This document shows, one piece after another, positions 18,833-34,498 of a DNA stretch of 64,000 nt (within the stretch, counting starts at the first letter, position 1; the number at the start of each line of letters is the position of its first letter). The translations under genes and the position numbers were made by a program. This DNA comes from Candidatus Latescibacterota bacterium (lineage in GTDB: Bacteria; Latescibacterota; UBA2968; UBA8231), in assembly GCA_965204725.1 (NCBI GenBank), contig OZ242005.1, positions 2,336,001-2,400,000 on the forward strand, in the 5' to 3' direction. The notes beneath the pieces were generated by a model, which saw only the letters and a program-made list of their open reading frames with translations, was not told the DNA's origin and made no database searches.

Positions 18833-19001
18833 TATTAGTCCTAAATGACTTGCAAGCATTGTAGAGATGCTTCGCTACGCTCAGCATGACACCGAGACGG
18901 GCGCTTCGTCCCCCACACCTTGTCATACTGAGCGCAGCGAAGTATCTCATACCCAAAACGCCATGCACAACATCCCGTATGAATGATGTAGGATTGCTTA
19001 T
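18833..19001 (+). mobile_element. Non-autonomous MITE-like element carrying a REP doublet
   Basis: Ends (TATTAGTCCTAAATGACTTGCAAGCAT ... TGAATGATGTAGGATTGCTTAT) match the element at 52636-52754 in reverse; interior inverted pair GAGATGCTTCGCTACGCTCAGCATGACA / TGTCATACTGAGCGCAGCGAAGTATCTC at 18864-18948. Confidence 0.65.
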
Positions 19002-20506
19002 CACCTAAGAAGCATGAAACTCGAAAGCGGCAAGCTGACGATTCGGGGGTCGTCAACCTTCCCGGAATGATCCTGCGTGATCAGCAAGCCAAAAGAGGCG
19101 TTGTTGACTGATTTTTCCACAAACGACCGAATACCGAGTGTATCCCGCAAGGGATCAATCCGGCGTTGATATTTGATTTCCACCGGCACGCGCTGTGCGC
19201 CGACCGTCAAGACGAAATCCACTTCGCGGTCCAAGCCGCGCTCGGGCAAGTGGGCGATGTCCAAGCCGTGAACGGTCAAGGCGACCGAGCCGAAAATGCT
19301 CTCCGCGAGATGGCCGGCCAGCGCGGTGAGTTCGGGCCGCTCGGCTAGGGCTTCAGCGGTCAATGGAATCTGCTCTTGGAGCCAACTGGCTCGCAGGCCG
19401 TGATCGACCAGACACAGTTTCGCGTTCCCGCGCTTTCTCTTGAGCCGAATCTCGAGCGGTGGAATCAAGCGAAGCAGCAGGGTGTCGGCGAGAAACCTCA
19501 AGTAGTGAGTCACCCGCTGACTGCCGATGTTCGCGCCGAGCGATTGACGAGCTTCGTCCGCCAGCGTCGAAACCGTCGGCGTCTGCCCGGCATAGCGGCA
19601 GGCCAAGCGGAAAAGCTCTTCAAGTAGCTGGGCATCTCGCTTCCGGCCGCGGTCGCCGACCCGAAGGTCGTGTTGGATAACCCGCTTGATCACGGTTTCG
19701 TTCAACTGGTCCGCGAGCAAGGGCCAGCCGACATCCTTTTGCTTGTGGACTATCGGATAGCCTCCCCGCTCGGAAAAATGCCGAAAGGCTTCATTCCGAA
19801 ACGCGGTGTGCTTCTCCCCATGGGCGCGCAACTCCTGCCAGAAACCCTTGTCAATCAGGAAGCTCAGGCCGTTGTCTGGCAGGAATGGTTGCGGCGGCCC
19901 CAGTGCGCGCAACGCGCCGATTTCGGTCAGCGAAAGCACCCCTGCCTCGACCGTGCTGATGCGCCCGGCCAAGCTGTCCCGCCCCCGTTCAATCCGCAGC
20001 GCGGAACTTCCCGTAACCATGACCTTTACCGCGGTGTTATCTACGAGAAACTTGAGCTGCGGTGCCCAAGCCTGAAGGTTCTGCACCTCGTCAAAAAAGA
20101 GGTATGCCTTCTGCCCGTCTTGCGCGAGCGCGTTGAAGTGCTTCTTGATTATCTGCCGCTCGAACCAATCGGCCACATCGAGAATCGGCTGTTGAGTGGT
20201 TTTCAGCGCGGGCAGTTCGTCAAACGGGACCCGGAGGATGCTCGTGGGCGACACGCCTTCTGCAATCAAATCTGCAATGACGTGAAGCTGCGCCGTGCTT
20301 TTTCCCACTTGCCGCGGACCGCGCACCGCGACAATCGGGGCGATCTCCGCGTCGAGGCGACAGCGAATCTGCGCGACGAGGTGGCGGCGCGTACGCGGCT
20401 GCGGAGGCATGGGGTTGTCTTCCCACCAAGGATTCAGACGACGCAGGACGCGGACGAACTCCGGCGACAACTCATAGTCGATAAAAGGCAAAGCCCGCTT
20501 GCTCAT
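19001..20506 (-). CDS. AAA_14 ATPase with C-terminal DUF4143 (PD-(D/E)xK-like) domain
   Basis: GPRQVGKS, FFDEVQ, VTGSS, EVDFVL...PVEIKY. Confidence 0.85.
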   Translation of the reverse strand: MSKRALPFIDYELSPEFVRVLRRLNPWWEDNPMPPQPRTRRHLVAQIRCRLDAEIAPIVAVRGPRQVGKSTAQLHVIADLIAEGVSPTSILRVPFDELPALKTTQQPILDVADWFERQIIKKHFNALAQDGQKAYLFFDEVQNLQAWAPQLKFLVDNTAVKVMVTGSSALRIERGRDSLAGRISTVEAGVLSLTEIGALRALGPPQPFLPDNGLSFLIDKGFWQELRAHGEKHTAFRNEAFRHFSERGGYPIVHKQKDVGWPLLADQLNETVIKRVIQHDLRVGDRGRKRDAQLLEELFRLACRYAGQTPTVSTLADEARQSLGANIGSQRVTHYLRFLADTLLLRLIPPLEIRLKRKRGNAKLCLVDHGLRASWLQEQIPLTAEALAERPELTALAGHLAESIFGSVALTVHGLDIAHLPERGLDREVDFVLTVGAQRVPVEIKYQRRIDPLRDTLGIRSFVEKSVNNASFGLLITQDHSGKVDDPRIVSLPLSSFMLLR

Positions 20507-20557
20507 TCTCTTCCTTTCACGATGGGAGCTTGCTCGGGGAATGCGCTACATCTCCCC

Positions 20558-20600
20558 GTCAGGATCGCGGATTGGTGCGGATTAAAGGATGGCGCGGATT
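20558..20600 (+). repeat. Left 43-nt inverted repeat (CGGATT-triplet type)
   Basis: GTCAGGATCGCGGATTGGTGCGGATTAAAGGATGGCGCGGATT; inverted partner at 26563-26605. Confidence 0.75.
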
Positions 20601-21012
20601 AAAGACCGTTGGGTCGTCTGCGCTTGGGTTGTGAATGAACTAGTCTTTTGAACACTAAACTTTTCGACCCGAAATTGATTAACAAGCCCACTTCTAGCCG
20701 ATATGCCTTCAAATAATTTAAGGTCTGCGCTATGTGGGCATCTTCCAATACAGAAACCGCTTTCAATTCTACCAATACTTTTCCTTCAACGACAAAATCG
20801 GCGCGGCGCGTACCAATTGGCTTTGTCAATCCTTTGTAGAAAATGTGTTGCTCAATTTCACGCGCAAAAGCCAACCCCACCTGTGCCAGCTCAAACGCCA
20901 AGGCCCGCTGATAAATTACCTCTTGGAATCCATTGCCCAAAAATTTATGCACCTCGAAGGCCGCCCCGATGATTTTTTCGGTTATATCTCTGTGTTTTAG
21001 GTTATTGATCAT
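20599..21012 (-). CDS. GxxExxY protein (PD-(D/E)xK nuclease family)
   Basis: LGNGFQEVIYQRAL, RADFVVEGKVLVELKA, LLINFG. Confidence 0.92.
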   Translation of the reverse strand: MINNLKHRDITEKIIGAAFEVHKFLGNGFQEVIYQRALAFELAQVGLAFAREIEQHIFYKGLTKPIGTRRADFVVEGKVLVELKAVSVLEDAHIAQTLNYLKAYRLEVGLLINFGSKSLVFKRLVHSQPKRRRPNGL

Positions 21013-21080
21013 ACTTACTTTTCTTTCTCTACTGCGTCCTTCGACCCGTTTCAATGCCGGCGTGACCATGAGTGAATAGG

Positions 21081-21449
21081 TTATTTTGTTTCATGAGGTT
21101 CTTCTTTCTCAAACCACAGCGAGCCGGTGGGCACTCCATTAACAAGCCTAAATAGCCCGCTATATGTAAGACGTCCATAAAACCTACTTACTATATCGGA
21201 TGAAAATAATTGTTTCTCGCCGCCGATTAGCCAAAGAATATCTAATCCATTTTTGTTTAGCCATTCATCTAACTTTTGGCTATCCATCAAAGCATAACTC
21301 GGTCCGTATTGTTTGATACTCGGATCGCGGAAAATCACGCCATCATCATTCTCCCAAGATCCAAAATCATTGTCAGTTCTTCTTAAATCCAAACTTTCTA
21401 TCAACTCTTTTGTGGGAAGATAGAATGATAAAGAGTCATCAAGTGAGTA
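21081..21449 (-). pseudogene. Detached C-terminal fragment of the AVAST-like gene
   Basis: Frame YSLDDSLSFYLPTKELIESLDL...ILWLIGGEKQ begins exactly at the IS end and has the same low GC as 22294-26482. Confidence 0.75.
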
Positions 21450-22293
21450 GAAGCTATCTCATAAATACCGTAGCAGTATGAGGATGCATCCGAGTTGTAC
21501 AAAGCCGAGGTAGTTTTCAGCATAGTATTCGTATCGAACCACGATGCGGCGGAAGTTATGCAACCAAGCAAACAGTCTTTCTATTTTCCAGCGTCTTTTG
21601 TAGCCCCGCAACCGCCGCCCGTCCTGGGTTTTGGCCTGCGTGCGATTGCGGCGATGCGGGGCGATCATCTCAATGCCTTGGTTGGCCAAGCTCGCATCCA
21701 ATCGATCCGAGTCGTAGGCTCGGTCCCCGATGAGTCGTTGCGGTCGGGGCTGGACCCATCGGTTTTCCAAGGTGGCTTCTACGAGGGTGACTTCGTGGGG
21801 CGAAGCACTTTGGATGAGTACGGCGATAGGAAGACCAGCGCGGTCTGCCACTGCCATGAGCTTCGTACCTTTGCCCCGCTTGGTCGGACCCACTCGGTCC
21901 CCCCTTTTTTCGCCGCGACAAACAGGCCATCGATGAAGCATTCGCTCACATCAAGGCCCCCGCGCTCATGCAAGTCGTGCGCGAGGGTGCGCAGAATATG
22001 TTCAAAGGTGCCATCAGACGACCACTGTTGGAATCGACGATGGCAGGTCTGGTAGGACGGATAGCGAGCAGGCAGGTCATGCCCAGGCGCCCCGGTGCGG
22101 AGAATCCACAGAATACCATTGAGCACCGCCCGGTTACAACGCCAGGGACGACCCCGACCATCGCGGCGTTTGGGACACGCCGGCAGCAGTGGGGACACTA
22201 TCGACCACTGTTCGTCTGTAAGATCCATAAGAGATACCTCCGAAAGGGAATACCACTAACGTAGCACAGCCAGACTATTTATGAGATAGCTTC
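21450..22293 (-). mobile_element. IS5 family (IS427-type) insertion sequence, 844 bp, two-ORF frameshifted transposase
   Basis: Perfect 18-bp TIR GAAGCTATCTCATAAATA with TA on each flank; orfA 21779-22228 (MDLTDEQW...GILWILRTG), orfB 21459-21941 ([21 protein letters not shown]); slippery AAAAAAGGGG near 21901-21910. Confidence 0.93.
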
Positions 22294-25200
22294 TAGATGG
22301 GATGCTGATAATGTAAGGATCTGTGAGGCGTTTATTTTCGAGCTCTTCTTTTACAAGATCATAATCTTGCTTGCTAATAAAAACAGCGTTAATCCTAAAC
22401 CAACAATCTAATTTTGTTTCTCGACCTGATTTGCTCTGTTGTTCCATCCCTCTTAATACTATCCATTGATTCTGCTTACCAGGATCTTTTACTCGCAAAA
22501 GGTCTGAAAAATCGGGGATTATATCTTTATCCCAAAGAAACTCTTGCTGATCACGAATATCGTCACGGCCGGAAAAAGAGAATTTGTATGGCTGCCACCA
22601 TGTACTCTCTGAGTGATGGTCACCATTTTTTCTTATCCAAATAGTAGGATCAATATCTCGTTTGTACATTTGCCATGGGCCATAGTAATGTTTGTCTTCC
22701 ATGTCACTATAACCGCGATCTATCCAATGTACGTTATCGGATAAACGCGCAAGTATCTCATGAAACGCAATCCATTGATATTTCTTGCCGATCCTTTCCA
22801 TCTCTCCGCCGCTAGGCCCCTGATCTCGTCCATAGGAGCAATGTTCTTCAAACTTAGAAAAAAGTTCTTCTGTCCAACCAAACTCGTAGGAACGCTTACA
22901 CACCCACCTTTGTGCCCACTTACGACTAAACGCAGCCGGCCTATCATTATCCAAACCAGAAAGCCACCTATAGTATTCTCTATTTTCATCACTGCTAATT
23001 TGGGTTTTTATTTGGTCTTCCAACTCTTCCGGTCTCTTTTTTCTCTGGTCTCGTCTTTTTTCTTTTGATTTCCGTACATTTTTGTGTTTCTCAATGGCGT
23101 CGTTTTCTTTTTTAATTTCGTCAAAAGTTCGCATATTTTTTCTCACATCTACCTGTTTTAAGCGCATAGAAGATATATCAATCTTCTTAGAAGTGTTTTT
23201 AGATAGATTTGGGGCAATTTGTTTTAGATATTCTGCTTGAACCTTTCCGCGTAATAATTGTTCTGCAAATTTCTTTTTCAAATCATATCCCGTTTGGGGA
23301 GCAGGTTCGGATATAGGTGTTGGAGACCAGTTGTGAATGCAATTCATAGTGTACGTTCCAAAATCTCCTGGAAACCCCATAACAGAACTTTTTATTTTTG
23401 AGTATCCTTTGCTCTGTTGAAAAGGCTTATTTATTAGCTTGGTTCGCTCCATTATTCTATATAATATCGCAGGAGCAAGCTGTACAAGAAACTTAATCAT
23501 AGCCTCCTTAACTCTGCTTTTCAATAGAGCAATCTTTGAGTATCCTTTATTCTCAACTATGCTGTCAATTTCCTTTTGTGTAGGATTTTCTATTGGCCAT
23601 TCAGATTTGTACGGCGGTCGAAACAAGTCGATATTGACACCATCAGGAAGCAATTTTTTATATAGAGCCAACTCCAAAATACCTCTCGCATAATCTCTGA
23701 GAAGTATATGCGGTATAGGCTTGCCGTCTTTGAAGACGAGTTCAAAAACCAAAGTTGCTATACGAGAAATAATCTGTGGATCAGTAGTATTACAAACAAC
23801 TCCATAGGCAACAGCATATAGACGTTCAATCAAATAGAGATCGTTGACCAAATGAAATTCACGAAGCAAATCTGGCAAAAAAGAGGGATATTTTGACAGT
23901 ATTCTTACCAGCGATTTTGTCGCTCTATCACGTACCTTGCGATTCGATGTTGTAAGAAACCATAGCAATGTGATCGCACAAAGTTGTATCCTTTCTTTCT
24001 CAACTTCTTCTATATCTCCAAAGCATGACCATTCGATAAGATCTCTTACAATGGATTCAATCCCTTCATCTTCTTCTGATGTATAATTCAATGCCACATG
24101 AATCGACCAGAAATGGTCACGCTCAGCCATCTCTTTGCCTATTAAGTTGGTATGTATTAGCCTTGCGTTCCATGGGTGTGAGGGTTCTGTTGATAGCTTC
24201 AATAGTATATGCAATATTCGGTTAGAATATTTTATCCGATTAAGCAATTCCAGCGTTCTGTCCGAAAATGAACTTGGAGTTCTCCAAATAACTGTGTTGG
24301 AAAACATTTCAGTGGTTAGCCGTTCATCAATATCTGCATCACAAGGTAAAAGATCAATCAACTCTTTATTATATTTTTCTGCAATGATTATGGTCAAAGC
24401 CTCAAGTATTCCGGCATATCTATAATATCCGCGTTCTGCAACTGCCTTACCGAGAGGCTTATCAGGGGAAAAAATACTGTCAATATTTTCTGAGTTATAC
24501 TGCTCTATAATTTGTTGAGCAACAAAATGATCGCTGAATCTCTCATAGGTGAACCTGACTAAAGGTTTTCCTCCCTCATCAGGTTCATACGAAATATCAT
24601 CTGACAAGACACCTTCCTGCAATAATTCATTAAGAAAAGGCTTGCCTATATTTTCATTCGGATCGTGATCACGGAATAGTTTTCTAGCGTCTCCCGTGGG
24701 TATTCCAGTTAAATGTTCTGGAAATAATTTCGATGAGAATGCGATCAGAGCTTGTTTGACTATTTCTTCTCTGGGATTATAGTCTTTACGTTTAGCAATT
24801 ATTTTTTCAATGCTTTTAATATAGAAATCAAACAGACTCGTAACACCGCGTAAGCCTTTAGGGAAAGCGGTCATATTATTTGCTTTTAGAGCTTGGCAAC
24901 ATGTTTTTAAGAACAAAGGGTTAGTAAACTCTGGTGCCAATATAGGAGCACTGGGTTTTGAAATTCCTTGCTGAGATAGATACTTTTCTGCGGCACGATG
25001 CTCGTATCCTTGAAAGCCATAGTGCTTTATCTGAATAAGACGATCTTCATTTATGTGGTCAGGCAAGATATATGTTAAGAAAGTACTCCGACAGCTTAAC
25101 AAAACTGCGATATGATCAAATTTAGATATGTCTGATAAGAAGCTAATTATATGATACTGCCAGTCCTCTCTATGTAAACCTTCGTTGATAGCATCGATTA

Positions 25201-26482
25201 CGATAAGTGCCCTAGAACCGGAAGCCTCTCCTGCAGCGTTTATTGCCCCAAAAACCTGTGAATCACTATGTTCCCTCAAATCAATGGCATCTTTTATCAA
25301 TTCAATCGGATTGCCGCCGCCATATTGAGAGCCCAAAAGAAAAATTGTAGGTTGATTATTTTTTATTCGATGAAGGCTAATATCGCAGAGCAAATGAGAC
25401 TTCCCGATTCCAGCCTCGCCATATAAAAGGGCTGTCTTAATTTTTGCCGCTTTAACCTTTTCTCCTTTTAAGAAATAAGAAAAATCACTTATTATATAAA
25501 AGAAGTCATCAAAAATCCTACGTTCCTCATTGCGGTCAGGTCTCCCTTGACTGTTCCTGTTTTCCTTCGAGAGCATATCGTAATATTCTGAATATTCTGA
25601 TATTTTTTCAAAATGCTCTTGCACATCTTGAACATTGAATAGCACATCTTTTTGGTTCATCCCATCCGATAAGATGCGAGATACCACTAAATACAGTTCG
25701 TTTATCTTTGCGACTTTTTCTGAATCCAACAACTCTGATTTGTCTCCCATAAACTCCTTGAAAAACTTTTCTGCCTTTTCATTTAAGTCCGCTATTCTAG
25801 ACCCTAAGTCTTTCCACCATTGAGCATTCAGGCAAAGCCCATCAAAAACTTTAGCAATAGGTAAATCAACATGAAACTCGGGTGTATATCTATCTCCCAA
25901 AGCCTCCCGTGCTTTACCCGCTATGTCCTCGAGTTTTCCAAAATTCAATACTGGTTCGTTAAACCAATACAATGCTTTACCAGAGTACAAAGGATCGTTA
26001 ATAGTCAAAAATGATGTGATTTCATGCTTCCCCCAGTACTTAAACTCGACACTGCGTCCCTCATCTTGAGCCCTCTCTTTCCATTTTTTAACATAGATAT
26101 TCCATTCATCTTCAACAGATACTACTTTCTTGCCACCTCGTCCTTTTTTTCTGCTATCCGATTTGTCCAGAGGCAAACAGATGACATATTTCGTCAAATT
26201 AGGATGTCTCTCCAAGGCGGTAATAAAAGAATGATCCAATTGTTGCCAACGAGATTGATCCATTCCATCTGGAAAGTACTTCGCTTGCCAGCATATTTCT
26301 GAATTATCTTCTAGGACCCAATAGCACTCGACACCAGCATCACCACCAGCACCTTCCTTCCTCGTAAACCTCAATGCTTTTTGTGGTTTGCGGAGACGCG
26401 CAAGTTGACAAACCAGTTCTTCAAAGCCAGATGCTTGGCTTCCGTTATGTGCTCTAATAGTTGAAAAATCAATATTGTTCAT
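22294..26482 (-). pseudogene. AVAST-like STAND NTPase with N-terminal restriction-like nuclease (Avs2/Avs4-like), IS-interrupted
   Basis: N-terminal FEELVCQL...GDAGVEC...WQAKYF; Walker A GEAGIGKS; Walker B IVIDAINE; NPLFLK; RFTYERFSDH; C-terminal ERIGKKYQWIA...GPWQ..RDIDPT; low GC. Confidence 0.8.
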
Positions 26483-26562
26483 CTGGTTAATCCTCCTTTT
26501 TTATCCTCTGCATCACTTGCGGCGTCTGTGTTTTCTGCACCCTCCACCCACCTGCACTGCCC

Positions 26563-26605
26563 AATCCGCGTCCTCTGCGTAATCCGTCTAATCCGCGATC
26601 CAGAC
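26563..26605 (-). repeat. Right 43-nt inverted repeat (partner of 20558-20600)
   Basis: AATCCGCGTCCTCTGCGTAATCCGTCTAATCCGCGATCCAGAC; its reverse complement begins GTCTGGATCGCGGATT. Confidence 0.75.
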
Positions 26606-26621
26606 ATCTTCCACCACCGTC

Positions 26622-26732
26622 TCATCCAACACTCCGCGCCCGCTGTTTCCGATTTTCGACCAACTCGGTTACGTCGGCATATACCAACTCGCGGTCGTCA
26701 GCGGTCAAGCCCAGTGCACCAACTTCATTCAT
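26622..26732 (-). pseudogene. 36-aa chimeric gene remnant
   Basis: MNEVGALGLTADDRELVYADVTELVENRKQRARSVG; overlaps the stop codon of the R-M gene. Confidence 0.4.
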
Positions 26733-29700
26733 TATCAGCGTCCCGCATTTCTTCCAGCAACGCTTGCCCGATATATTCGTCGTGTCTTTCGCTGATGTTT
26801 GTAGCGTCAGAAGTCAATGTGCCTGCTAATGCTAGTAGGGGATCGCGTTCGGGCTGACGTTGGGCTTTCAGTTCCTCTTTACCCTCAATGGCGCGGATGA
26901 CCTCCAAGCTACCGAGAAAGAAAAGATTCTTCCGTACAGGATGTTTTCTCTCATAGAGTCGCTCAAAGATGGTGCGGAGTGCGGACATTTTATCGCCGGT
27001 GATTTCCTCGATAGAGTGCAACTGCTCGCCTTGCAACGGTTTGAAGAAGTACTTGTCAGCGCGATGCAGTTCATCGGTCAGGTAGATTTCATAAACCAGT
27101 CCGTCAACTATCCGCTCAAAAAACTTGACCATCAGGTAGTCCCGGGCATAAGCTAAATTTTTGCCGTCCGTAGATGGCTGATTCTTGAGGTAGATGATGT
27201 AATCGACGATAGTGGTGATGAGGGCGTTCTTATCGGCAGTAATCTTGGGAATGGGGATGCGTTCAACAGCGAATTTCTTCCACTGAGTAAGGCCCATTCC
27301 AGTCGTTAGGGCGGTATTCTTTATGAGCCAAGTAACAAGGGTACTGTTCAAAACCGCACAAAGGTATTTCAGCGATTTCCCCGTCATAAAAAACCCTTTG
27401 TCGTTGCAATACATTTCCGAATCAGAGTAGGCGAACCTTCCCTTGCTCGACATATCCATCCAGAACAGCTTTTCTTTAGCAAACTCTGCATGGTAGGCGC
27501 AGTTGCGAAGACTGTAAGGCGTCTGAACTCTGTCATACCGCTTTTCCAAGTTTGGATAGAACTTATCCAAGTGATTTTTGATGATCGGGTAATCGTCAAT
27601 GTTGATAGCCGGAACATCGTCATATCCGTTGTGCGTATCAATCAGCCAGACCCCTGCCCATTGCACTTGATAGCGTTGAATATCCCGGCCGCGCAACATG
27701 GGCTTGATAACCTCGGCAGACTTCGGGTCTGCGGCGACCAATTCCTTTTTGGTTGCATCGTCAATAATGAAGGCGTCGTTGAATCCAGTTGTTACGCCGC
27801 GATAGATAGACACATCCCAGTCTTTCAACGGCGTTCCAATCGCCTCCATCTTATCCATAATCGACTGCTCAATGGCCGACAGCGCACTCCACGGCTTTTC
27901 CCCTCTTGGACTCAACTGCCCCCAAAAATTGTCCTCCGGCGGGAAGGCTCTATCGGACAGGCGGTCCATATCCACCGCCTTGCAGACCGCATCGCTCTTG
28001 CCGCTACGCGCTAGCAAAATGTTGGTGTCAACAATAGCGTTTTCAAAAACATCCTTGCCCATTTCCAACAACTGCAACGGCGAGTGTTGCTCAGCAAAGT
28101 AGCGGCGTGTCGTCTTGCCGTATTCCGCCTTTAACCAACTGTTGGACGTGATATAAGCGAGTAGGCCGTGCTGGGACGCGAGCAGTTGGCAGCCCTTCTC
28201 GTAAAAAAGCTGATAGATGTCGCCCGTGCGGACGAAGGTGGCAAACCCGGCGTCCTTGTAGAGCCGCCCCAATTCCCCTCTATTTTTCTGCAACTGAATG
28301 TACGGCGGATTCCCAATCACCACGTCAAACCCATCGGCGACGCCGAACATATACTCCGCGTCGAACCAATCGGCACCAGCATTCTGGTCGTAGGGATCCC
28401 ATTGGGCGACTTGGTTCGCGGCGGCAGCACTCATACTGTTCTGCAACTCGGCGGCCAATTCTCTACGCAGCCGGGCATCCTGTCGGCGATACGCCAACTT
28501 CTCTTGGCGCGTGGTGGCGTGAAAGTGCCGCTCGCGGTTTTCGTTCAGTTCCTGTTCCAACCGATTCACCGCATCCGTTTGCCCGAGGCTCATTTGGGCT
28601 GGCTTGTCAAGGCTCAACAACGTATTCGCCGCGACAAAGCGCGTCTCCAAGTTCGGCAACGGCTTAATGCCAAAGTTGTCGGCGGTCTTGTTCACTTCCT
28701 GCTCTATCGCCAGCGAAATGAAAAAGCGCAACTTGGCGATCTGGCAGGCCACCGGCTGAATATCCACCCCAAAGATGCTGTTCTGAATCAGATACAGCTT
28801 GCGCCCAAAGTCGGAGTCCCGGTAGTGCTCAAAGGTCTCGCTGATTTCATCGAGTTCGGCTTTGCGTTCCCGTGGGTCTTGGGCGTCAAACGCCACATCC
28901 GCCTTAGCTAGGGCGCGTTCCTTTTGCAACTTCTCCCAGTGGGCGTTGTCGGGGTCAATCCGCCGCAAGGCCAAAGTGAGTTTATGCAATACACCCATGG
29001 GAAACGCGCCCGATCCGACCGCTGGGTCCAACACCTTGAGCTCCGCAATCGCCTGCACAAGACGTTCCGCTTCGACCTCCTCAAACAGTTCATTGGCGTC
29101 GTTGAACGCATCCTCATAGTCCAGCAAATAGCGCAACCGATCTTGCCAAAACCCAACATCGTCGTCTCTTGGCGAACACGCCTGAGCCAATGCCTCGACC
29201 AACGCCTCATCCACCATGTAATCCACCACCGGACGCGGCGTGTAGTACGAGCCAGTCTGCTCACGCACCGTCTCGCGTGTTTCGGGATTGTACGCGGCCA
29301 GCAAATTCTCGAACACCTTGCCGAGCAACTCCGGGTCAAGCGCGACCTCCTGTTCCGCAGGCGTGTTTTCCTCCACCGTGAACTTGTAGCGGTTGAACAG
29401 AGTAATCAGCCCATCGTCGTCAAAAAACAGGCGGTTGGGAAGGCTCAACTTGTGGTAGTGAACATCGGAAAAACAGTCAACGCGCCAGCCGCCTGATGTG
29501 GTAGATTCCTCACTGTCCAGACAATCGAACAAGCCGCCGTTGATAAAGGGCGTCTGGCTGAACAGACGCAACAGCGCATCCGGGTCGCTCATTTCTCTTT
29601 TGAAGCGATAGCGGGAAAAGTCGCGGTGAGTGACATTCTTCTTTTGGCTAAAACCGCGCTTTTCGATCTCGGTGTTGAGCGTAGCGAAAAACAGGTTTTG

Positions 29701-30633
29701 TAGCACCGTGCGGTAGTACGAATCGCCCGCGTCTTGGTCGTAATCCTTCAGCAGTTTGGCGATTCGCGCCTCAATGAACAGGGCGTCGGCGATGAGCCTC
29801 TTTTCCTTGATGAACCAGACGAATAGCAGGCGAGTAATGAGGCGGATGACGTGTTCTTCGGCGTGGAGGGAACGCGCTTCGCCGGTTGGAAACGTCGCCT
29901 CCTGAACCGCACGGTTGAACCAGCCAAACAAATCGCGGTAGAACCGCCGATTCAATTCTTCCGTATCCAGCGCGGCCAACCAAGCGGCCAACAAGCCATC
30001 GAAGTTGGGCAACGCGTCGTGGGCGTCCATCCACAGCAACCGCTGCCGCAACGATAAGTCGGCGAGGATGTCCAACTGGGCGCGGTGTGGCTCAGTGGGG
30101 TTAATCTCCCGAATCAGCGACACGTGGCCCAGCACATCGCGCTTGGGGTCGCGCTTGTGTTCACGGCGGTGAACAAAGGACAGAGTCAACCGATCATCAG
30201 CGGTCTTGAACAGCACCACAGTCGGCACGGTTATCCGCTTGTTGACCTCGCGGGTAAATTGGGCGTATTGCCCACGCGGATAGGTTTTGCCGTTCAGTTC
30301 AATAGCGGCGAACAAAAAACTCCGCGCATTGCCCTTGTCAAAGCCGTCAGTGGGCAACAACGTGCGCCGCACCACCGTAATTTCAGAATCGGTCACCTGA
30401 AAGAGAATCCGCACGGACCGGGCGTTGTCGCGGAAAAACCGTTCGGCCTGTGTGTTCTCGTTTAGCGCAGGAAATTGCCGAATAAAGTCATCCACCTTGC
30501 CCGAAAGCACTACGGTGCGCTCGCTCCGATAGCCCAACACATCGAGCAGATGAACGGCATTTTCACACCATTCGCCCGTTTGGCAACGCTGTATGGCTTC
30601 GGCTATGGCCTCTCTGTATGCTGTATCATTCAT
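26725..30633 (-). CDS. Type IIG/Eco57I-like N6-adenine methyltransferase with TaqI-like specificity domain
   Basis: GSYYTPR, VLDPAVGSGAF, GVDIQ, VIGNPPY, YITSNSWL, LNS motif; last ~50 aa look foreign. Confidence 0.88.
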   Translation of the reverse strand: MNDTAYREAIAEAIQRCQTGEWCENAVHLLDVLGYRSERTVVLSGKVDDFIRQFPALNENTQAERFFRDNARSVRILFQVTDSEITVVRRTLLPTDGFDKGNARSFLFAAIELNGKTYPRGQYAQFTREVNKRITVPTVVLFKTADDRLTLSFVHRREHKRDPKRDVLGHVSLIREINPTEPHRAQLDILADLSLRQRLLWMDAHDALPNFDGLLAAWLAALDTEELNRRFYRDLFGWFNRAVQEATFPTGEARSLHAEEHVIRLITRLLFVWFIKEKRLIADALFIEARIAKLLKDYDQDAGDSYYRTVLQNLFFATLNTEIEKRGFSQKKNVTHRDFSRYRFKREMSDPDALLRLFSQTPFINGGLFDCLDSEESTTSGGWRVDCFSDVHYHKLSLPNRLFFDDDGLITLFNRYKFTVEENTPAEQEVALDPELLGKVFENLLAAYNPETRETVREQTGSYYTPRPVVDYMVDEALVEALAQACSPRDDDVGFWQDRLRYLLDYEDAFNDANELFEEVEAERLVQAIAELKVLDPAVGSGAFPMGVLHKLTLALRRIDPDNAHWEKLQKERALAKADVAFDAQDPRERKAELDEISETFEHYRDSDFGRKLYLIQNSIFGVDIQPVACQIAKLRFFISLAIEQEVNKTADNFGIKPLPNLETRFVAANTLLSLDKPAQMSLGQTDAVNRLEQELNENRERHFHATTRQEKLAYRRQDARLRRELAAELQNSMSAAAANQVAQWDPYDQNAGADWFDAEYMFGVADGFDVVIGNPPYIQLQKNRGELGRLYKDAGFATFVRTGDIYQLFYEKGCQLLASQHGLLAYITSNSWLKAEYGKTTRRYFAEQHSPLQLLEMGKDVFENAIVDTNILLARSGKSDAVCKAVDMDRLSDRAFPPEDNFWGQLSPRGEKPWSALSAIEQSIMDKMEAIGTPLKDWDVSIYRGVTTGFNDAFIIDDATKKELVAADPKSAEVIKPMLRGRDIQRYQVQWAGVWLIDTHNGYDDVPAINIDDYPIIKNHLDKFYPNLEKRYDRVQTPYSLRNCAYHAEFAKEKLFWMDMSSKGRFAYSDSEMYCNDKGFFMTGKSLKYLCAVLNSTLVTWLIKNTALTTGMGLTQWKKFAVERIPIPKITADKNALITTIVDYIIYLKNQPSTDGKNLAYARDYLMVKFFERIVDGLVYEIYLTDELHRADKYFFKPLQGEQLHSIEEITGDKMSALRTIFERLYERKHPVRKNLFFLGSLEVIRAIEGKEELKAQRQPERDPLLALAGTLTSDATNISERHDEYIGQALLEEMRDADNE

Positions 30634-30648
30634 CTTTAGCAGTCCTCA

Positions 30649-31577
30649 GAGGCTGTCTGAAAACTCCATTTTCTATTTGATTCTTTTGAGTAACAGGTGG
30701 ATCATAGCAATCTGGATCAAGGCTTCGCTATGGCGGGTCAACACCTCATAATCTCGGGCATGACGGCGCGAGTTCATCACCCATGCCAAGGTACGCTCGA
30801 CGACCCAACGGCGTTTGAGTACGGTAAATCCGGGGCCTTGTTTGGCGACGACTTCCAAGTCAATCTTGTGCGTCTTTTTTAGGTTGGCCACCCATGTTCG
30901 GATCGCCTCGCCTCGATAGCCGCCATCGCCCCACAGTTTGCGTAACCGGGCTACGCCGGACGTCCCCAAGCGGGTCAACACCTGCTGCAAGCCGTCTCGA
31001 TCGGATACATCGGCGGCGGTGACCACCACCTGTCGAAGCAAGCCTGAGGCGTCGACCAGCAGATGCCGTTTTCGGCCTTGAACCTTCTTGCCCGCGTCGT
31101 AACCGGTTGTTTTACCATGGGTTGCCGTTTTGATGGTCTGACTATCGATACAGCCCGCCGAGGGCGTGGCCGGCCGGCCGTTGCGGCGGCGTTCCTGCTG
31201 GGTGAGCCGTTCCAACACCCGCGGCCAGACCCCGTGCCGGCTCCAGCGACGGAAGTAATCATACACCGTTTTCCACGGGCCAAAACAAGCCGGTAACAAC
31301 GCCCAAGGACACCCCGTCTTGTTCAGATACAAAAGCCCGTTGACGATCGGACGCCGATCCCGCGGCGGCCGACCCGGACCGTTGGGGCGCCACCGCGGAG
31401 CCGGCAGCAACGGTTCGATCTGCTGCCATTGCACATCGGTTACATCGGTTGCATATTGGCCACTGGGCGTACTCATCATACGAGCCTTTCTGTTCAGATT
31501 TTGTGGTGAAACCTGAATATGGCCTGATGAGTACGCCGATTCAAATACGACTACATAATGGGTTTTCAGACAGCCTC
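30649..31577 (-). mobile_element. IS5 family (IS1031-like) insertion sequence, 929 bp
   Basis: 16-bp TIR GAGGCTGTCTGAAAAC...GTTTTCAGACAGCCTC; single transposase ORF. Confidence 0.92.
30673..31479 (-). CDS. IS5 family transposase
   Basis: YATDVTDVQW, IDSQTIK, GYDAGKKVQGRKRHLLVD, RRWVVERT. Confidence 0.93.
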   Translation of the reverse strand: MMSTPSGQYATDVTDVQWQQIEPLLPAPRWRPNGPGRPPRDRRPIVNGLLYLNKTGCPWALLPACFGPWKTVYDYFRRWSRHGVWPRVLERLTQQERRRNGRPATPSAGCIDSQTIKTATHGKTTGYDAGKKVQGRKRHLLVDASGLLRQVVVTAADVSDRDGLQQVLTRLGTSGVARLRKLWGDGGYRGEAIRTWVANLKKTHKIDLEVVAKQGPGFTVLKRRWVVERTLAWVMNSRRHARDYEVLTRHSEALIQIAMIHLLLKRIK

Positions 31578-31615
31578 TAAGAAGCGGTCTGAAAACTCTG
31601 GTGGTCGTCTCCCGG

Positions 31616-31725
31616 CTGGATTCCCGCGTTCGCGGGAATGACTTCTCAGAAGCTGCTTGAAACGCCAGCCTCCGTCATTCCCGCGCAAGCGGGAATCCAG
31701 TCTTGAATGATATGGGATTGCTATT
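31616..31725. repeat. Inverted REP doublet plus MITE right end
   Basis: CTGGATTCCCGCGTTCGCGGGAATGAC (31616-31642) and GTCATTCCCGCGCAAGCGGGAATCCAG (31674-31700), then TCTTGAATGATATGGGATTGCTA. Confidence 0.8.
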
Positions 31726-34498
31726 TAATCACCAGCCACGTCACAAGTTCAAAATCCGTCGTTTCGCCGATCTGCTCATCGCGTCGCGGCAAGACGCCGC
31801 TGCGACTAGACAAAAGGGTGTCAATAGCCCGTTTCTGGTAGGTGCTACTCAAAGACTGCACCGCTTTTTCGAGCAGCTCATTGTAGAACGTCATGTTAGC
31901 ACCGTCGTCCGTCTGTTTATCGAACAGGGCGCACAATTCCTCATGCGGATCTTTCACCCCCGCACACAACAGACGGCACAGCTCTAGTATCTGCTTGGGT
32001 TGGGCAAAAGTAAAGCGCACATCGCCTTTTTCCCGGACATAGACGAGAAAATAGGGATGCAGCGGGTTTATCTGCTCATTTTCCGCTGAATCGCCTTTCT
32101 GCCGGAGACAAAAAACAACGCCGGCAGTAATCATTGGATAATCCGCGTGCGGTGGAATAACAGCATACAGCCCCAAGGGCGCGTCTTCAAGGATTTGCCG
32201 ATTGCTCTCAATGTACTTCGTCAGTTCGACGCGGAAATCGTCGAGAGTAAATTCATTGAGCGCAATGCTCTCGCTGAAATCCTCAAGGTCCAATAGTTCG
32301 TCCTTCAACCGCAGCAATTGCTTGTCGCGGTAGGTAAGGTCCTTTGCGACCAGTTCCCGAATCTCTTCAGGCTCTAATAGATTGTCTCCCTGCGTGGCGG
32401 TTATATCAACCAACGCCATGCGCGCCTCAACGCGATTTCTCAGGTTGATATAGCGGTTGAGGTCGGGCGTGGGCCAGAAGTTGACGAGTTGAACTCGGTG
32501 ATTGATGCTACCGATGCGATCAATCCGCCCAAACCGTTGAATGATGCGCACTGGATTCCAGTGAATGTCGTAGTTAATCAAATAATCGCAATCTTGCAGA
32601 TTTTGCCCTTCGGATATGCAGTCGGTGCCGATTAGCAAGTCAATCGCCCCCTCCTGCGGCATGGATTGCATCTGGGCGCGTTGCTTGGCAACCGGCGAAA
32701 AGTTCGTCAGAATGTGACCGAAGTCGCGCTGGCCAAACGTCGTTTGATTCCCGGACGCGCCGCCCGATACCACGGCGAGGTGAATCCCCAAGTCTTGGGT
32801 GGCCCATAGACGCAGCGCGTCGTACAGATAGGCGGCAGTGTCGGCAAAATGGGTGAAGACCAATACCTTGCGATTCGGCTGGCCGCGCTGGTCCATGGTC
32901 GGATGTTTGACCTTTTCGGCAATGAGTTCCTTCAGTTTGGCGAGCTTGGCGTCGCGCTCGGGGGTGATGTCTTTGGCAAAAAGATACGGCAGTTCGAGTT
33001 GCTCGCGGTCGCGTTGCAAATCCGCCAGCCATTTCTCGCAATCGAGATGCGCCATGTTAAAGACCAGCTTTTTCCCCACCTGCATCGCTTCCTGCAACTC
33101 TTCATCCCCGAAATCTTCAACTGCGCCATCTTCCAAAACCAAATCAGGGTTGTCAGCGCGGAACGCCTGAAACCGCCGGATTCGTTCTTTGAGGGCCTCA
33201 ATTTTTTCAATGGTCCGCTCCATCGTAATGGCAAAGGAATGAACCGAACTTTCCAACCGCTTGAGGAAGTTCACCTTCATCATGCCGATTAGGTAGTGTT
33301 CCCGGTCGCTTTGCCTAAAGTTTTTAATCGGCTGCCCGTCGTATTCTGCACGGTATTGGGGGAGGACGTATCTCGAAGGATTGAACAGGGAAAGCTGGTA
33401 CTTGGAGATTTCGTCGTTCAACTCGTCGTACGACATAAACCGCTTCGACGGGTCCTCTTGCAGCGCGTCAATATCCGCATAGACCGCCTGCGGCTGACCG
33501 CGCTCGGGGAATCCACCCAGTTCCGCCAGCGAGTCCGGGTAGTATTGCTCAATGTGCTTGCGGGAACGGGCAATGGTCAACTCGTCGAGCAGCTTAAAAA
33601 AAGTGGAACTGAGCCGTTCCAAGAGATCGCGGGTGTGGCGAGCACCGGGCCGCTTGGCCCAGTCCGTAAAGGTGCGTTGGGCGGCTGCTAATGTCTCTTG
33701 CAGGCTGGCCACGCCGAGCGATTCGCGGAAAGAGTCATCTCGGCCTTCGGTCAAAAAATAGAGCTGGTTGCGTAGATCTTTCAGGTCGTTGTTCACCGGC
33801 GTAGCGGAAAGCAACAAGACCTTGGTCTTAACGCCGCGCTGAACAATATCCTCCATCAAACGCTGATAGCGGCTCTTGCGAATCAGCTTGCCGTCCTCGT
33901 CCCGCTTACCGGGGGTGTTGTTGCGGAAGTTGTGCGATTCGTCAATAACCACCAAATCGAAATTGTCCCAGTGGATGGTCGCCAGATCGAGATCGCCCGA
34001 CCGGCCGCGGTCGCGGCTCAGATCGGTGTGGGCTAGCACCGTGTAGCTAAAGCGATCTTTGAGAAACGGATTGAGCGCACTGTTGTTCTGCGCTTGATAC
34101 ATCGTCCAGTTGTCGCGCAGCTTCTTGGGACACAAGACGAGAACTCGGGCATTGAGCAATTGAAAGTATTTGATCACCGCGAGGGCCTCAAAGGTCTTGC
34201 CCAAGCCCACGCTATCGGCGATGATGCAGCCATTGTGTTGCCGTATTTTGTTGATCGCGTTCTTCGCGCCATCCCGCTGAAATTCAAACAGGGCCTTCCA
34301 TATCTCCGTATCGACGAGTTGCTGAGGCCCAGTGAGCAGGCCGCTGGCTTCCTGCTCCGCCAAAAACCGCTCAAAGAGGTGAAACAGGGTTTTGTAGTAG
34401 ATAAATTCCGGCGCGTGATTCTGAATGTTGTTGCCCGCCGGACTCAGGCCCAAGCCGCGCACCGTAAAATTGGAACTGCCCAAAATAGCCTCTTCCAC
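31721..34498 (-). CDS. SNF2-like SF2 helicase, R-M partner, with truncated PLD nuclease domain
   Basis: IADSVGLGKT, VIDESHNFRN, LLSATP, SEGQNLQD, QRFGRIDRIG; the N-terminal GSSNFT is only the second half of a PLD motif. Confidence 0.8.
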   Translation of the reverse strand: MEEAILGSSNFTVRGLGLSPAGNNIQNHAPEFIYYKTLFHLFERFLAEQEASGLLTGPQQLVDTEIWKALFEFQRDGAKNAINKIRQHNGCIIADSVGLGKTFEALAVIKYFQLLNARVLVLCPKKLRDNWTMYQAQNNSALNPFLKDRFSYTVLAHTDLSRDRGRSGDLDLATIHWDNFDLVVIDESHNFRNNTPGKRDEDGKLIRKSRYQRLMEDIVQRGVKTKVLLLSATPVNNDLKDLRNQLYFLTEGRDDSFRESLGVASLQETLAAAQRTFTDWAKRPGARHTRDLLERLSSTFFKLLDELTIARSRKHIEQYYPDSLAELGGFPERGQPQAVYADIDALQEDPSKRFMSYDELNDEISKYQLSLFNPSRYVLPQYRAEYDGQPIKNFRQSDREHYLIGMMKVNFLKRLESSVHSFAITMERTIEKIEALKERIRRFQAFRADNPDLVLEDGAVEDFGDEELQEAMQVGKKLVFNMAHLDCEKWLADLQRDREQLELPYLFAKDITPERDAKLAKLKELIAEKVKHPTMDQRGQPNRKVLVFTHFADTAAYLYDALRLWATQDLGIHLAVVSGGASGNQTTFGQRDFGHILTNFSPVAKQRAQMQSMPQEGAIDLLIGTDCISEGQNLQDCDYLINYDIHWNPVRIIQRFGRIDRIGSINHRVQLVNFWPTPDLNRYINLRNRVEARMALVDITATQGDNLLEPEEIRELVAKDLTYRDKQLLRLKDELLDLEDFSESIALNEFTLDDFRVELTKYIESNRQILEDAPLGLYAVIPPHADYPMITAGVVFCLRQKGDSAENEQINPLHPYFLVYVREKGDVRFTFAQPKQILELCRLLCAGVKDPHEELCALFDKQTDDGANMTFYNELLEKAVQSLSSTYQKRAIDTLLSSRSGVLPRRDEQIGETTDFELVTWLVIK

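Follow-up and report, generated by a model that had tools for sequence, protein, structure and literature searches.

How could an anti-phage gene come to lie between two facing repeats, in a unit whose only recognizable transposase belongs to a later insertion? The question is raised by positions 20558–26605 of a 64,000-nucleotide stretch (the window) of a Candidatus Latescibacterota genome, where two inverted repeats enclose a split Avs2 gene and a small gene of the GxxExxY family. The same ends flank GxxExxY genes elsewhere, and thus the window holds an element of this kind, with Avs2 situated between the upstream end and GxxExxY. It probably belongs, as a member with cargo, to a family of small selfish elements that is apparently undescribed and is built on GxxExxY and two inverted ends. 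That GxxExxY and its matched ends belong together is strongly supported, and movement of the cargo by the element is plausible.

The locus and its two inverted ends

All genes of the locus lie on the − strand, in the order type IIG restriction-modification gene, right repeat, Avs2, GxxExxY, left repeat, and AAA_14/DUF4143 ATPase. The parts that define the element are the following.

20549–20616, + strand: left repeat, the downstream end (B-type module), with its core at 20558–20600 and its outer end at 20558.
20599–21012, − strand: GxxExxY (PF13366, TIGR04256), 137 amino acids from MINNLKH, with 21012 as the most likely start and an open frame to 21069.
26503–26605, − strand: right repeat, the upstream end (A-type module), with its core at 26563–26605 and its outer end at 26605.

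On the + strand, the left repeat (20558–20600) reads GTCAGGATCGCGGATT followed by more CGGATT units, and its GATT-type words are found at offsets 12, 22, 31 (degenerate, GATG), and 39. The right repeat at 26563–26605 presents the left repeat sequence on the − strand, and the outer 16 nt are identical at 15 positions. Both 43-nt segments, their coordinates, and this match had been described in a sequence-only reading of the DNA and are confirmed here, as are two further points of that reading: the enclosed block is low in GC (0.35–0.48 vs 0.58–0.66 outside), and the GxxExxY stop codon (20599–20601) shares 2 nt with the left repeat. The right repeat stands where it had been placed but is only the outer portion of a module of ∼100 nt (∼26503–26605), the inner part of which extends to the ribosome-binding site of Avs2.

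Within the 64-kb window the outer 16-mer, with two mismatches or fewer, matches twice where 0.17 matches are expected, and 2 of 100 shuffles gave two matches. This pattern was taken from the same data, so that counts over the whole genome are the better test. Clusters of at least three CGGATT words on one strand (spacing of at most 30 nt) occur twice in the 5.43-Mb assembly, and both are the window repeats; on the main contig (5,381,243 nt) the threefold cluster is present once per strand. The 16-mer pattern of the earlier reading has one extra genomic match, at contig position 1589289, which is devoid of added CGGATT units. A search of 20300–27000 against Rfam returned nothing but one sub-threshold snoRNA-like match, and promoter and terminator scans gave no more than was found in shuffles.

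Conservation of the ends beside GxxExxY

Relatives of the window GxxExxY were collected from one genome per species, which yielded at least 603 stretches, at least 592 of them confirmed; the best 80, with 59–93% amino acid identity, were kept. These loci stem from metagenome-assembled genomes and isolates labelled Bacteroidota, Cyanobacteria, Poribacteria, Latescibacteria, Spirochaetota, and others. The 16-mer (two mismatches or fewer) is located within 150 nt of GxxExxY in 61 of the 80 loci. Its density reaches 2.5/kb near the gene vs 0.07/kb at a distance of 2–4 kb, and 230 matches were obtained when these loci were read forwards, none when they were read backwards. The commonest layout (21/80) has a “+” copy ∼30 nt before the ATG and a “−” copy ∼40 nt past the stop codon, forming a unit of 465–478 nt (∼470).

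The consensus of 227 copies is TTGTCTGAATCACGGATT, followed by GATT at offsets 21–22, 29–31, and 38–40 (the first lies at 12), and both window ends conform to it. Each end of ∼45 nt is composed of the terminal TTGTCTGAATC and four GATT words spaced ∼9 nt apart. Mean pairwise identity is 0.40 at the third codon positions of GxxExxY vs 0.79 in the 16-mer, the latter value being biased upward by the selection of 16-mers at three mismatches or fewer. Judged from these alignments, the ends are under selection, as the 16-mer is conserved while the synonymous sites of the gene are near saturation. In 25 of 34 selected gene-less units that entered a hairpin test, the consensus fold energy amounts to −2.4 kcal/mol and 2 of 11 pairs are compensatory. 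The arms show almost no conserved pairing, so the ends resemble sites for a protein and not a selected hairpin.

More distant clades, represented by 20 GxxExxY loci from the class of the window genome with 33–60% identity, mostly lack the 16-mer. Their flanks take on the same build in other words, among them TGATT, CAGGAT, TTCGTG, GCAGAT, CACAAA, CGCAGATGA, and CACAAAAGG. Repeats shared from flank to flank outscore all 50 shuffles in 75 of 88 loci. When the word type is placed on the protein tree, 17 changes are needed vs at least 22 in 500 shuffles (6 vs at least 10 when the two GATT types are merged), a count that reflects joint inheritance of protein and ends. The suggestion that the nuclease and its cognate ends constitute a unit is upheld by the 61 of 80 loci, the conservation of the ends, and the recurrence of the same architecture in distant clades. 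Two loci of the window’s own genus (L135 in G014 and L136 in G001) harbor a distant GxxExxY of 42–44% identity that follows immediately on the C terminus of a type I hsdM-like gene; its flanking inverted arrays consist of CGCAGATGA instead of CGGATT.

The GxxExxY protein

GxxExxY (PDDEXK_3) is a very common family to which, to our knowledge, no role has been assigned. The window protein matches TIGR04256 with 131 bits (cut-off 35) over the full profile (1–116 of 116) and PF13366 with 124 bits (5e-36, cut-off 22). The PD-(D/E)xK catalytic residues E31, D72, E82, and K84 are invariant across 40 aligned sequences, and all invariants of the subfamily are present in the window protein. Its AlphaFold model (pLDDT 90.6) displays an alpha-beta core, so the protein is predicted to have the PD-(D/E)xK fold and a corresponding catalytic role. 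Foldseek returned weak, generic PD-(D/E)xK matches, the best of which is Cas4 SSO0001 (E 9e-4, TM 0.51), with Hjc and tRNA endonuclease also among the nearest, and a sequence search of the PDB gave no meaningful match. In a 2012 survey of the PD-(D/E)xK superfamily, PF13366 is entered with the function “Unknown” and with “multiple transfers” (PMC3424549). Literature searches for GxxExxY, PDDEXK_3, TIGR04256/PF13366/IPR026350, and the end words turned up nothing on repeats or mobility; as subscription journals and database family descriptions lay outside the search, an earlier mention is possible, and the GxxExxY elements are apparently a family without earlier description.

Gene-less copies within the class

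The window repeats, queried as the 45-nt left repeat and a module of ∼115 nt around the right repeat, match many sites in a sister genus of the same class. The left module (20549–20616) matches repeat copies in the genomes G025, G032, G027, and G029. The pattern GTCTGRATCRCRGATT is counted 145 times in G025, 56 times in G032, twice in the window genome, once in G019, and not at all in G029, with a backwards control of 0; it misses the left repeat (GTCAGG...), and its two matches in the window genome are the right repeat and the unrelated site 1589289. Copies within the class take three forms, namely inverted pairs of an A-type and a B-type module 150–280 nt apart, solo copies, and tandem arrays (periods of 147 and 111 nt). 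Over all loci, tandem periods of 72, 111, 143, 147, and 189 nt were recorded.

With a stricter pattern, any copy is present in 21 of 132 class genomes, and more than two copies are present in only three of them (112, 55, and 133). Gene-less copies have thus burst in 3 of 132 genomes, which is a sign of mobility. The GxxExxY gene itself is distributed patchily, another such sign, being found in 45 of the 132 class genomes and in 5 of 30 other genomes of the window’s genus. A comparison of gene-less units of G025 with G076, G032, and G029 yielded no clean empty site, as the sites were compound or rearranged.

Three further observations concern repeats in these genomes. At L118 (G025, 2248500–2251700), a repeat unit joins two genes that are widely separated in each of the other 20 genomes of the genus, so that the repeats mark a rearrangement breakpoint. 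A different repeat of ∼195 nt is located at 1500–1700 of L122 (G025) and also in G076, where it has at least 45 copies. At L027 (G032, 1766000–1776000), solo A-type ends are found between co-oriented tandem genes, each placed directly at the end of the upstream open reading frame (ORF).

Avs2 and the nested IS5

The space between the upstream end and GxxExxY is occupied by the following features.

21013–21080, − strand: spacer from the Avs2 stop to the GxxExxY start; homology to the G025 cassette begins at 21029, and G019 and G029 are homologous only as far as the GxxExxY start.
21081–21404, − strand: C-terminal fragment of Avs2 (PADLOC Avs2 positions 1396–1501 of 1504, E 2e-24; NCBIfam NF041813 positions 1225–1314).
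21448–22295, − strand: IS5-family insertion (Pfam DDE_Tnp_1, DUF4096) with perfect inverted ends of 20 nt (TAGAAGCTATCTCATAAATA; 21448–21467 and 22276–22295).
22256–26482, − strand: N-terminal 1408 amino acids of Avs2 (PADLOC Avs2, 1487 bits; NCBIfam Avs2, 907.8 bits; GC 0.35–0.43).

By profile, the “AVAST-like” STAND NTPase anti-phage gene of the sequence-only reading is assigned to Avs2. It is not one intact frame but is split by IS5, with 21081–21404 as its C-terminal piece. Its NCBIfam score of 907.8 stays below the cut-off of 1000 because the gene is truncated. The intact Avs2 of G025 (1467 amino acids) covers positions 3–1313 of 1317 of the NCBIfam profile and scores 980 vs the same cut-off of 1000. 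The IS5 contains two frameshifted transposase ORFs (21459–21941 and 21779–22228) and takes the place of ∼155 nt of Avs2, as judged by the intact G025 gene. It is the sole transposase inside the repeats and has its own ends, as first read.

Contigs from three other sponge-metagenome studies (X4, X5, and X6) join position 21450 to 22294 with 154 other letters; they lack the IS5, carry an intact Avs2, and otherwise match the window arrangement from the ATPase through the restriction gene. IS5 broke Avs2 later, in the window’s strain. A 138-nt in-frame stretch of Avs2 (23397–23534) is skipped in the same three contigs and is unaligned in G025; it may be a strain-specific duplication.

Avs2 of this kind is rare, being found in only 2 of the 132 class genomes, the window genome and G025. 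A metagenome scan for its relatives yielded one distant locus (55% identity) without the end motif, and the motif is also absent at three weak Avs2 paralogues in the class.

The cassette in related genomes

A second Avs2 cassette is situated at another site in G025, a member of a sister family, in the order restriction gene, repeat arrays, A end, intact Avs2, and B end. It is 85–89% identical to window positions 21029–26606 (86% for the cassette), and the homology stops at the outer end of the A repeat (26606). Set against G032, G025 has an insert of ∼5.7 kb that separates the stop codon of the restriction gene from an RHH antitoxin gene. The window and G032 have the C-terminal part of this antitoxin fused to the restriction gene, and the window element is placed beyond that part, beside a 36-codon toxin remnant. 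The different placement relative to the antitoxin segment means that the two Avs2 cassettes occupy different sites.

Within the window’s genus, the element is absent in G007 where G019 and the window have one, a further sign of mobility. G007 has the ATPase, a TIR-domain gene, an ATPase gene, and the restriction gene, and is devoid of GxxExxY and of the repeats. G019 is 91% identical to the window from the ATPase through GxxExxY and is arranged as ATPase, B repeat, GxxExxY, second B repeat, partial inverted A repeat, TIR/ATPase pair, and restriction gene; the outer end of its second B repeat lies 15 nt from the GxxExxY start codon. G029, of the sister family, has a GxxExxY of 88% nucleotide identity, a B/A pair, and then the restriction gene. 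The pair in G019 (L021, 5235–7870) and G007 (L022, 5980–8620) encodes a RecF-like ATPase of 475–479 amino acids and a TIR-domain protein of 403–404 amino acids and is probably another defence system in the slot of Avs2.

Location of the units

The window element is bordered by the following features.

19001–20506, − strand: downstream neighbour, AAA_14/DUF4143 ATPase (Pfam), PADLOC candidate PDC-S01.
26606–26879, − strand: flank of the element; comparison with G025 and G032 shows a remnant of a toxin-gene start (36 codons, MNEV...) and the end of the restriction-gene ORF.
26725–30633, − strand: upstream co-oriented neighbour, type IIG restriction-modification gene (Eco57I, TaqI_C; Pfam, PADLOC).

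By lying downstream of a type IIG restriction gene, the element occupies a position usual for its family. An upstream neighbour was found in 71 of the 80 loci and is co-oriented with GxxExxY in 61 of the 71. In 15 of the 71, and also in the restriction gene of G025, the stop codon of the upstream frame is exactly the TGA in the GTCTGA of the end sequence. A domain scan covered 47 of the 71 neighbours (the other 24 were 10 on the opposite strand and 14 co-oriented ones, 10 of these at loci without the 16-mer) and identified 12 histidine kinases, 12 restriction-modification genes of several types, and 1 TIR-domain gene.

At the histidine-kinase loci, the sequence past the downstream end resumes the kinase gene from the YDI codons in its last ∼30 residues, in 8 of 11 cases by pattern and in 10 of 11 by eye. 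The final ∼90 nt of the kinase gene are present twice in this way, and the second copy is often frameshifted or decayed. The duplicate points to a site-specific event that would leave the host gene a working 3′ end; it is kept as a lead because the loci are not independent and the kinase domain belongs to a tandem paralogue family. Since the kinase domain next to L040 is of that tandem family, the likeness of upstream 3′ modules between loci is not creditable to the element alone. The loci L040, L044, L051, L065, L068, and others from Bacteroidota have the element at the stop codon of large sensor histidine kinases, and L051 contains arrays of a 90-nt kinase piece plus a 98-nt gene-less unit with a period of 189 nt.

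Several features of the window flank stand apart from the element. The ∼50-amino acid tail of the restriction gene (26606–26879) is the C-terminal part of an RHH-type antitoxin, and the same fusion is seen in G032; G025 encodes this antitoxin on its own, in a small gene. After the tail, the window has the MNEV... remnant (36 codons) of the gene for the partner toxin. Between the restriction gene and an SNF2 helicase lies another IS5-family copy, which is intact (268 amino acids, 30673–31479) and is missing in G019 and G007. The match of the helicase (31721–34498) to the PADLOC candidate “HKD+Snf2” starts only at profile position 190; the helicase begins inside an HKD-like motif, and its N-terminal phospholipase-D part is seemingly cut off.

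A probable mechanism and its rivals

In the most probable mechanism, GxxExxY would bind the spaced words in both ends and would cut the termini or their vicinity, or else the target. A copy of the unit, or the unit itself, would then enter co-oriented genes at their 3′ ends, and DNA between the ends would travel along, which in the window would make Avs2 a guest of ∼5.5 kb in a standard unit. What has been observed is the anatomy of the ends, their association with GxxExxY and its conservation, the bursts of gene-less copies, and a second site with an Avs2 cassette; binding, cleavage, and the route of the cargo are inferred. A wider claim can be advanced only tentatively: GxxExxY proteins would be the mobilising nucleases of a new minimal (∼470 bp) class of prokaryotic elements across phyla, with ends matched to the protein clade. 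Such elements would settle at gene 3′ ends, notably of restriction-modification and histidine-kinase genes, sometimes bring a replacement 3′ end, spawn gene-less copies, and be able to carry defence genes such as Avs2 between distant bacteria.

Several results weigh against mobilisation by GxxExxY. The numbers of copies and genes diverge, since G025 has 145 copies by the looser pattern but one gene and G032 has 56 copies and a broken gene. The orientation of the nearest repeats in the 80 loci is mixed (+− in 21, ++ in 11, −+ in 9, −− in 9, one side in 14, none in 16), so many GxxExxY genes sit among gene-less units and not cleanly within one pair, and cargo was seen at none of the 80 loci. The count on the protein tree does not show binding, because kin share word labels. 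Gene-bearing copies within one genome are old, with 85% identity in G134 and unalignable sequences in G132, G133, and G136, so that no recent jump was caught.

Other points touch the cargo, for which the comparison consists of two related cassettes. G019 keeps the left repeat and GxxExxY and has the ATPase and TIR-domain pair in place of Avs2; its breakpoints are the GxxExxY start codon and a position inside the 3′ end of the restriction gene, not the outer repeats. The 6 kb are therefore not the unit of presence and absence in this genus. A relative without the STAND gene and with breakpoints off the repeats is what the sequence-only reading had named as speaking against it, and G019 is in part such a case. 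In the G025 cassette, Avs2 is followed by the B end with no GxxExxY in between, which may mean that the ends alone suffice or that another route acts. No target duplication was detected at the window element (best flank-to-flank score of 10 vs a shuffle mean of 10.4), and none was seen by eye at the G025 cassette. The excised forms that the earlier reading had proposed to look for did not appear: the X3–X6 contigs contain no excision or empty-site joint, although contigs drop rare forms. Of the idea of Avs2 as captured cargo, its position between an end and GxxExxY and its second cassette elsewhere stand, and its transfer as a unit bounded by the repeats finds no match in the G019 breakpoints, in a duplication, or in an excision joint.

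The main rival explanation takes the repeats as portable homology only, with Avs2 embedded once in a gene-less unit and spread by homologous recombination via the A/B modules or the restriction gene, GxxExxY being uninvolved. The lack of GxxExxY in the G025 cassette and the missing target duplication at the window fit this explanation, as do the homologous type IIG restriction genes that both cassettes adjoin, the relation between G019 and the window, which is a replacement and not a clean insertion, and the repeat unit at the rearrangement breakpoint of G025. However, the arms are short (45–100 nt) and only ∼75–90% alike, and the antitoxin segment is placed differently with respect to the two cassettes. 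Recombination through portable homology also leaves unexplained why the ends are conserved beside GxxExxY across phyla and why other clades have other words, and we regard it as unlikely.

GxxExxY could instead be a stationary accessory nuclease of restriction or defence loci, with the repeat arrays serving as operators, insulators, or RNA-processing signals and the gene-less copies arising by slippage and recombination. Restriction-modification genes do make up 12 of the 47 upstream neighbours, tandem arrays exist, and the gene is co-oriented with and abuts its upstream neighbour and so may be read through. Yet histidine kinases account for just as many of the 47 neighbours (12) and housekeeping genes for many others, bursts of dispersed copies are confined to 3 of 132 genomes, pairing between the arms is not conserved, and GxxExxY is patchy within a genus, all of which makes a stationary role quite improbable. 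A coincidence, in which two unrelated solo intergenic repeats happen to face each other around a horizontally acquired block, is highly improbable. G025 and G032 do have many solo copies and single-end arrays, but the window genome has only two copies, one of A-type and one of B-type as in complete units, and the same pairing around Avs2 recurs in G025.

Relation to known mobile systems

Set beside known systems, a GxxExxY element shares one or two traits with each and fails a defining one. Miniature inverted-repeat transposable elements, such as Correia elements and Nezha, and their parent insertion sequences resemble the GxxExxY elements in their inverted ends, in the short gene-less derivatives that burst in some genomes, and in insertion near genes. 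In contrast, the GxxExxY element has no DDE or other known transposase, and its cognate protein is a PD-(D/E)xK protein of 125–137 amino acids; its ends hold four spaced words, and no short target duplication was found. A Pfam search revealed no transposase of a known class within the 6-kb unit other than the nested IS5, whose ends differ.

Repetitive extragenic palindromic (REP) sequences and their associated transposases (RAYTs), which together form REPtrons, likewise combine one or two genes that lie between their own repeats with tens to hundreds of copies elsewhere that have no gene. The RAYT is an HUH/Y1 enzyme that acts on short palindromes, whereas GxxExxY is assigned a PD-(D/E)xK fold and its arms are arrays of words without hairpin support; no Y1 (HUH) transposase domain was found by Pfam among the ORFs of the locus. 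Tn7-like elements share the presence of several protein-binding repeats per end, a nuclease of the restriction-endonuclease fold (TnsA), and a terminus that begins with TGT. The GxxExxY unit differs in its size of ∼0.47 kb, in lacking TnsB, TnsC, and targeting genes, and in having only weak generic PD-(D/E)xK matches in Foldseek; TnsA, TnsB, and TnsC were not found at 19001–34498 with Pfam, PADLOC, or NCBIfam.

Homing endonuclease genes and integrative elements that replace 3′ ends are similar in placing a small nuclease gene at a fixed position in a conserved coding sequence, as at the kinase YDI junction. Homing genes are not known to have inverted ends or gene-less derivatives, and the GxxExxY element has no integrase. 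Among carriers of defence genes (integron cassettes, Tn7-like elements, satellites, and islands), the likeness consists of an anti-phage gene in a bounded, transferable unit within a defence island, and the difference consists of boundaries of the GxxExxY type in the window and the absence of a recombinase of a known class.

Significance

The link to conserved, clade-matched ends gives GxxExxY a concrete candidate function that can be tested cheaply. If the proposal is true, a new type of enzyme would join those of mobile elements in bacteria. A family of intergenic repeats, present in sponge symbionts and elsewhere among bacteria, would be accounted for, and anti-phage genes would have another route by which to travel.

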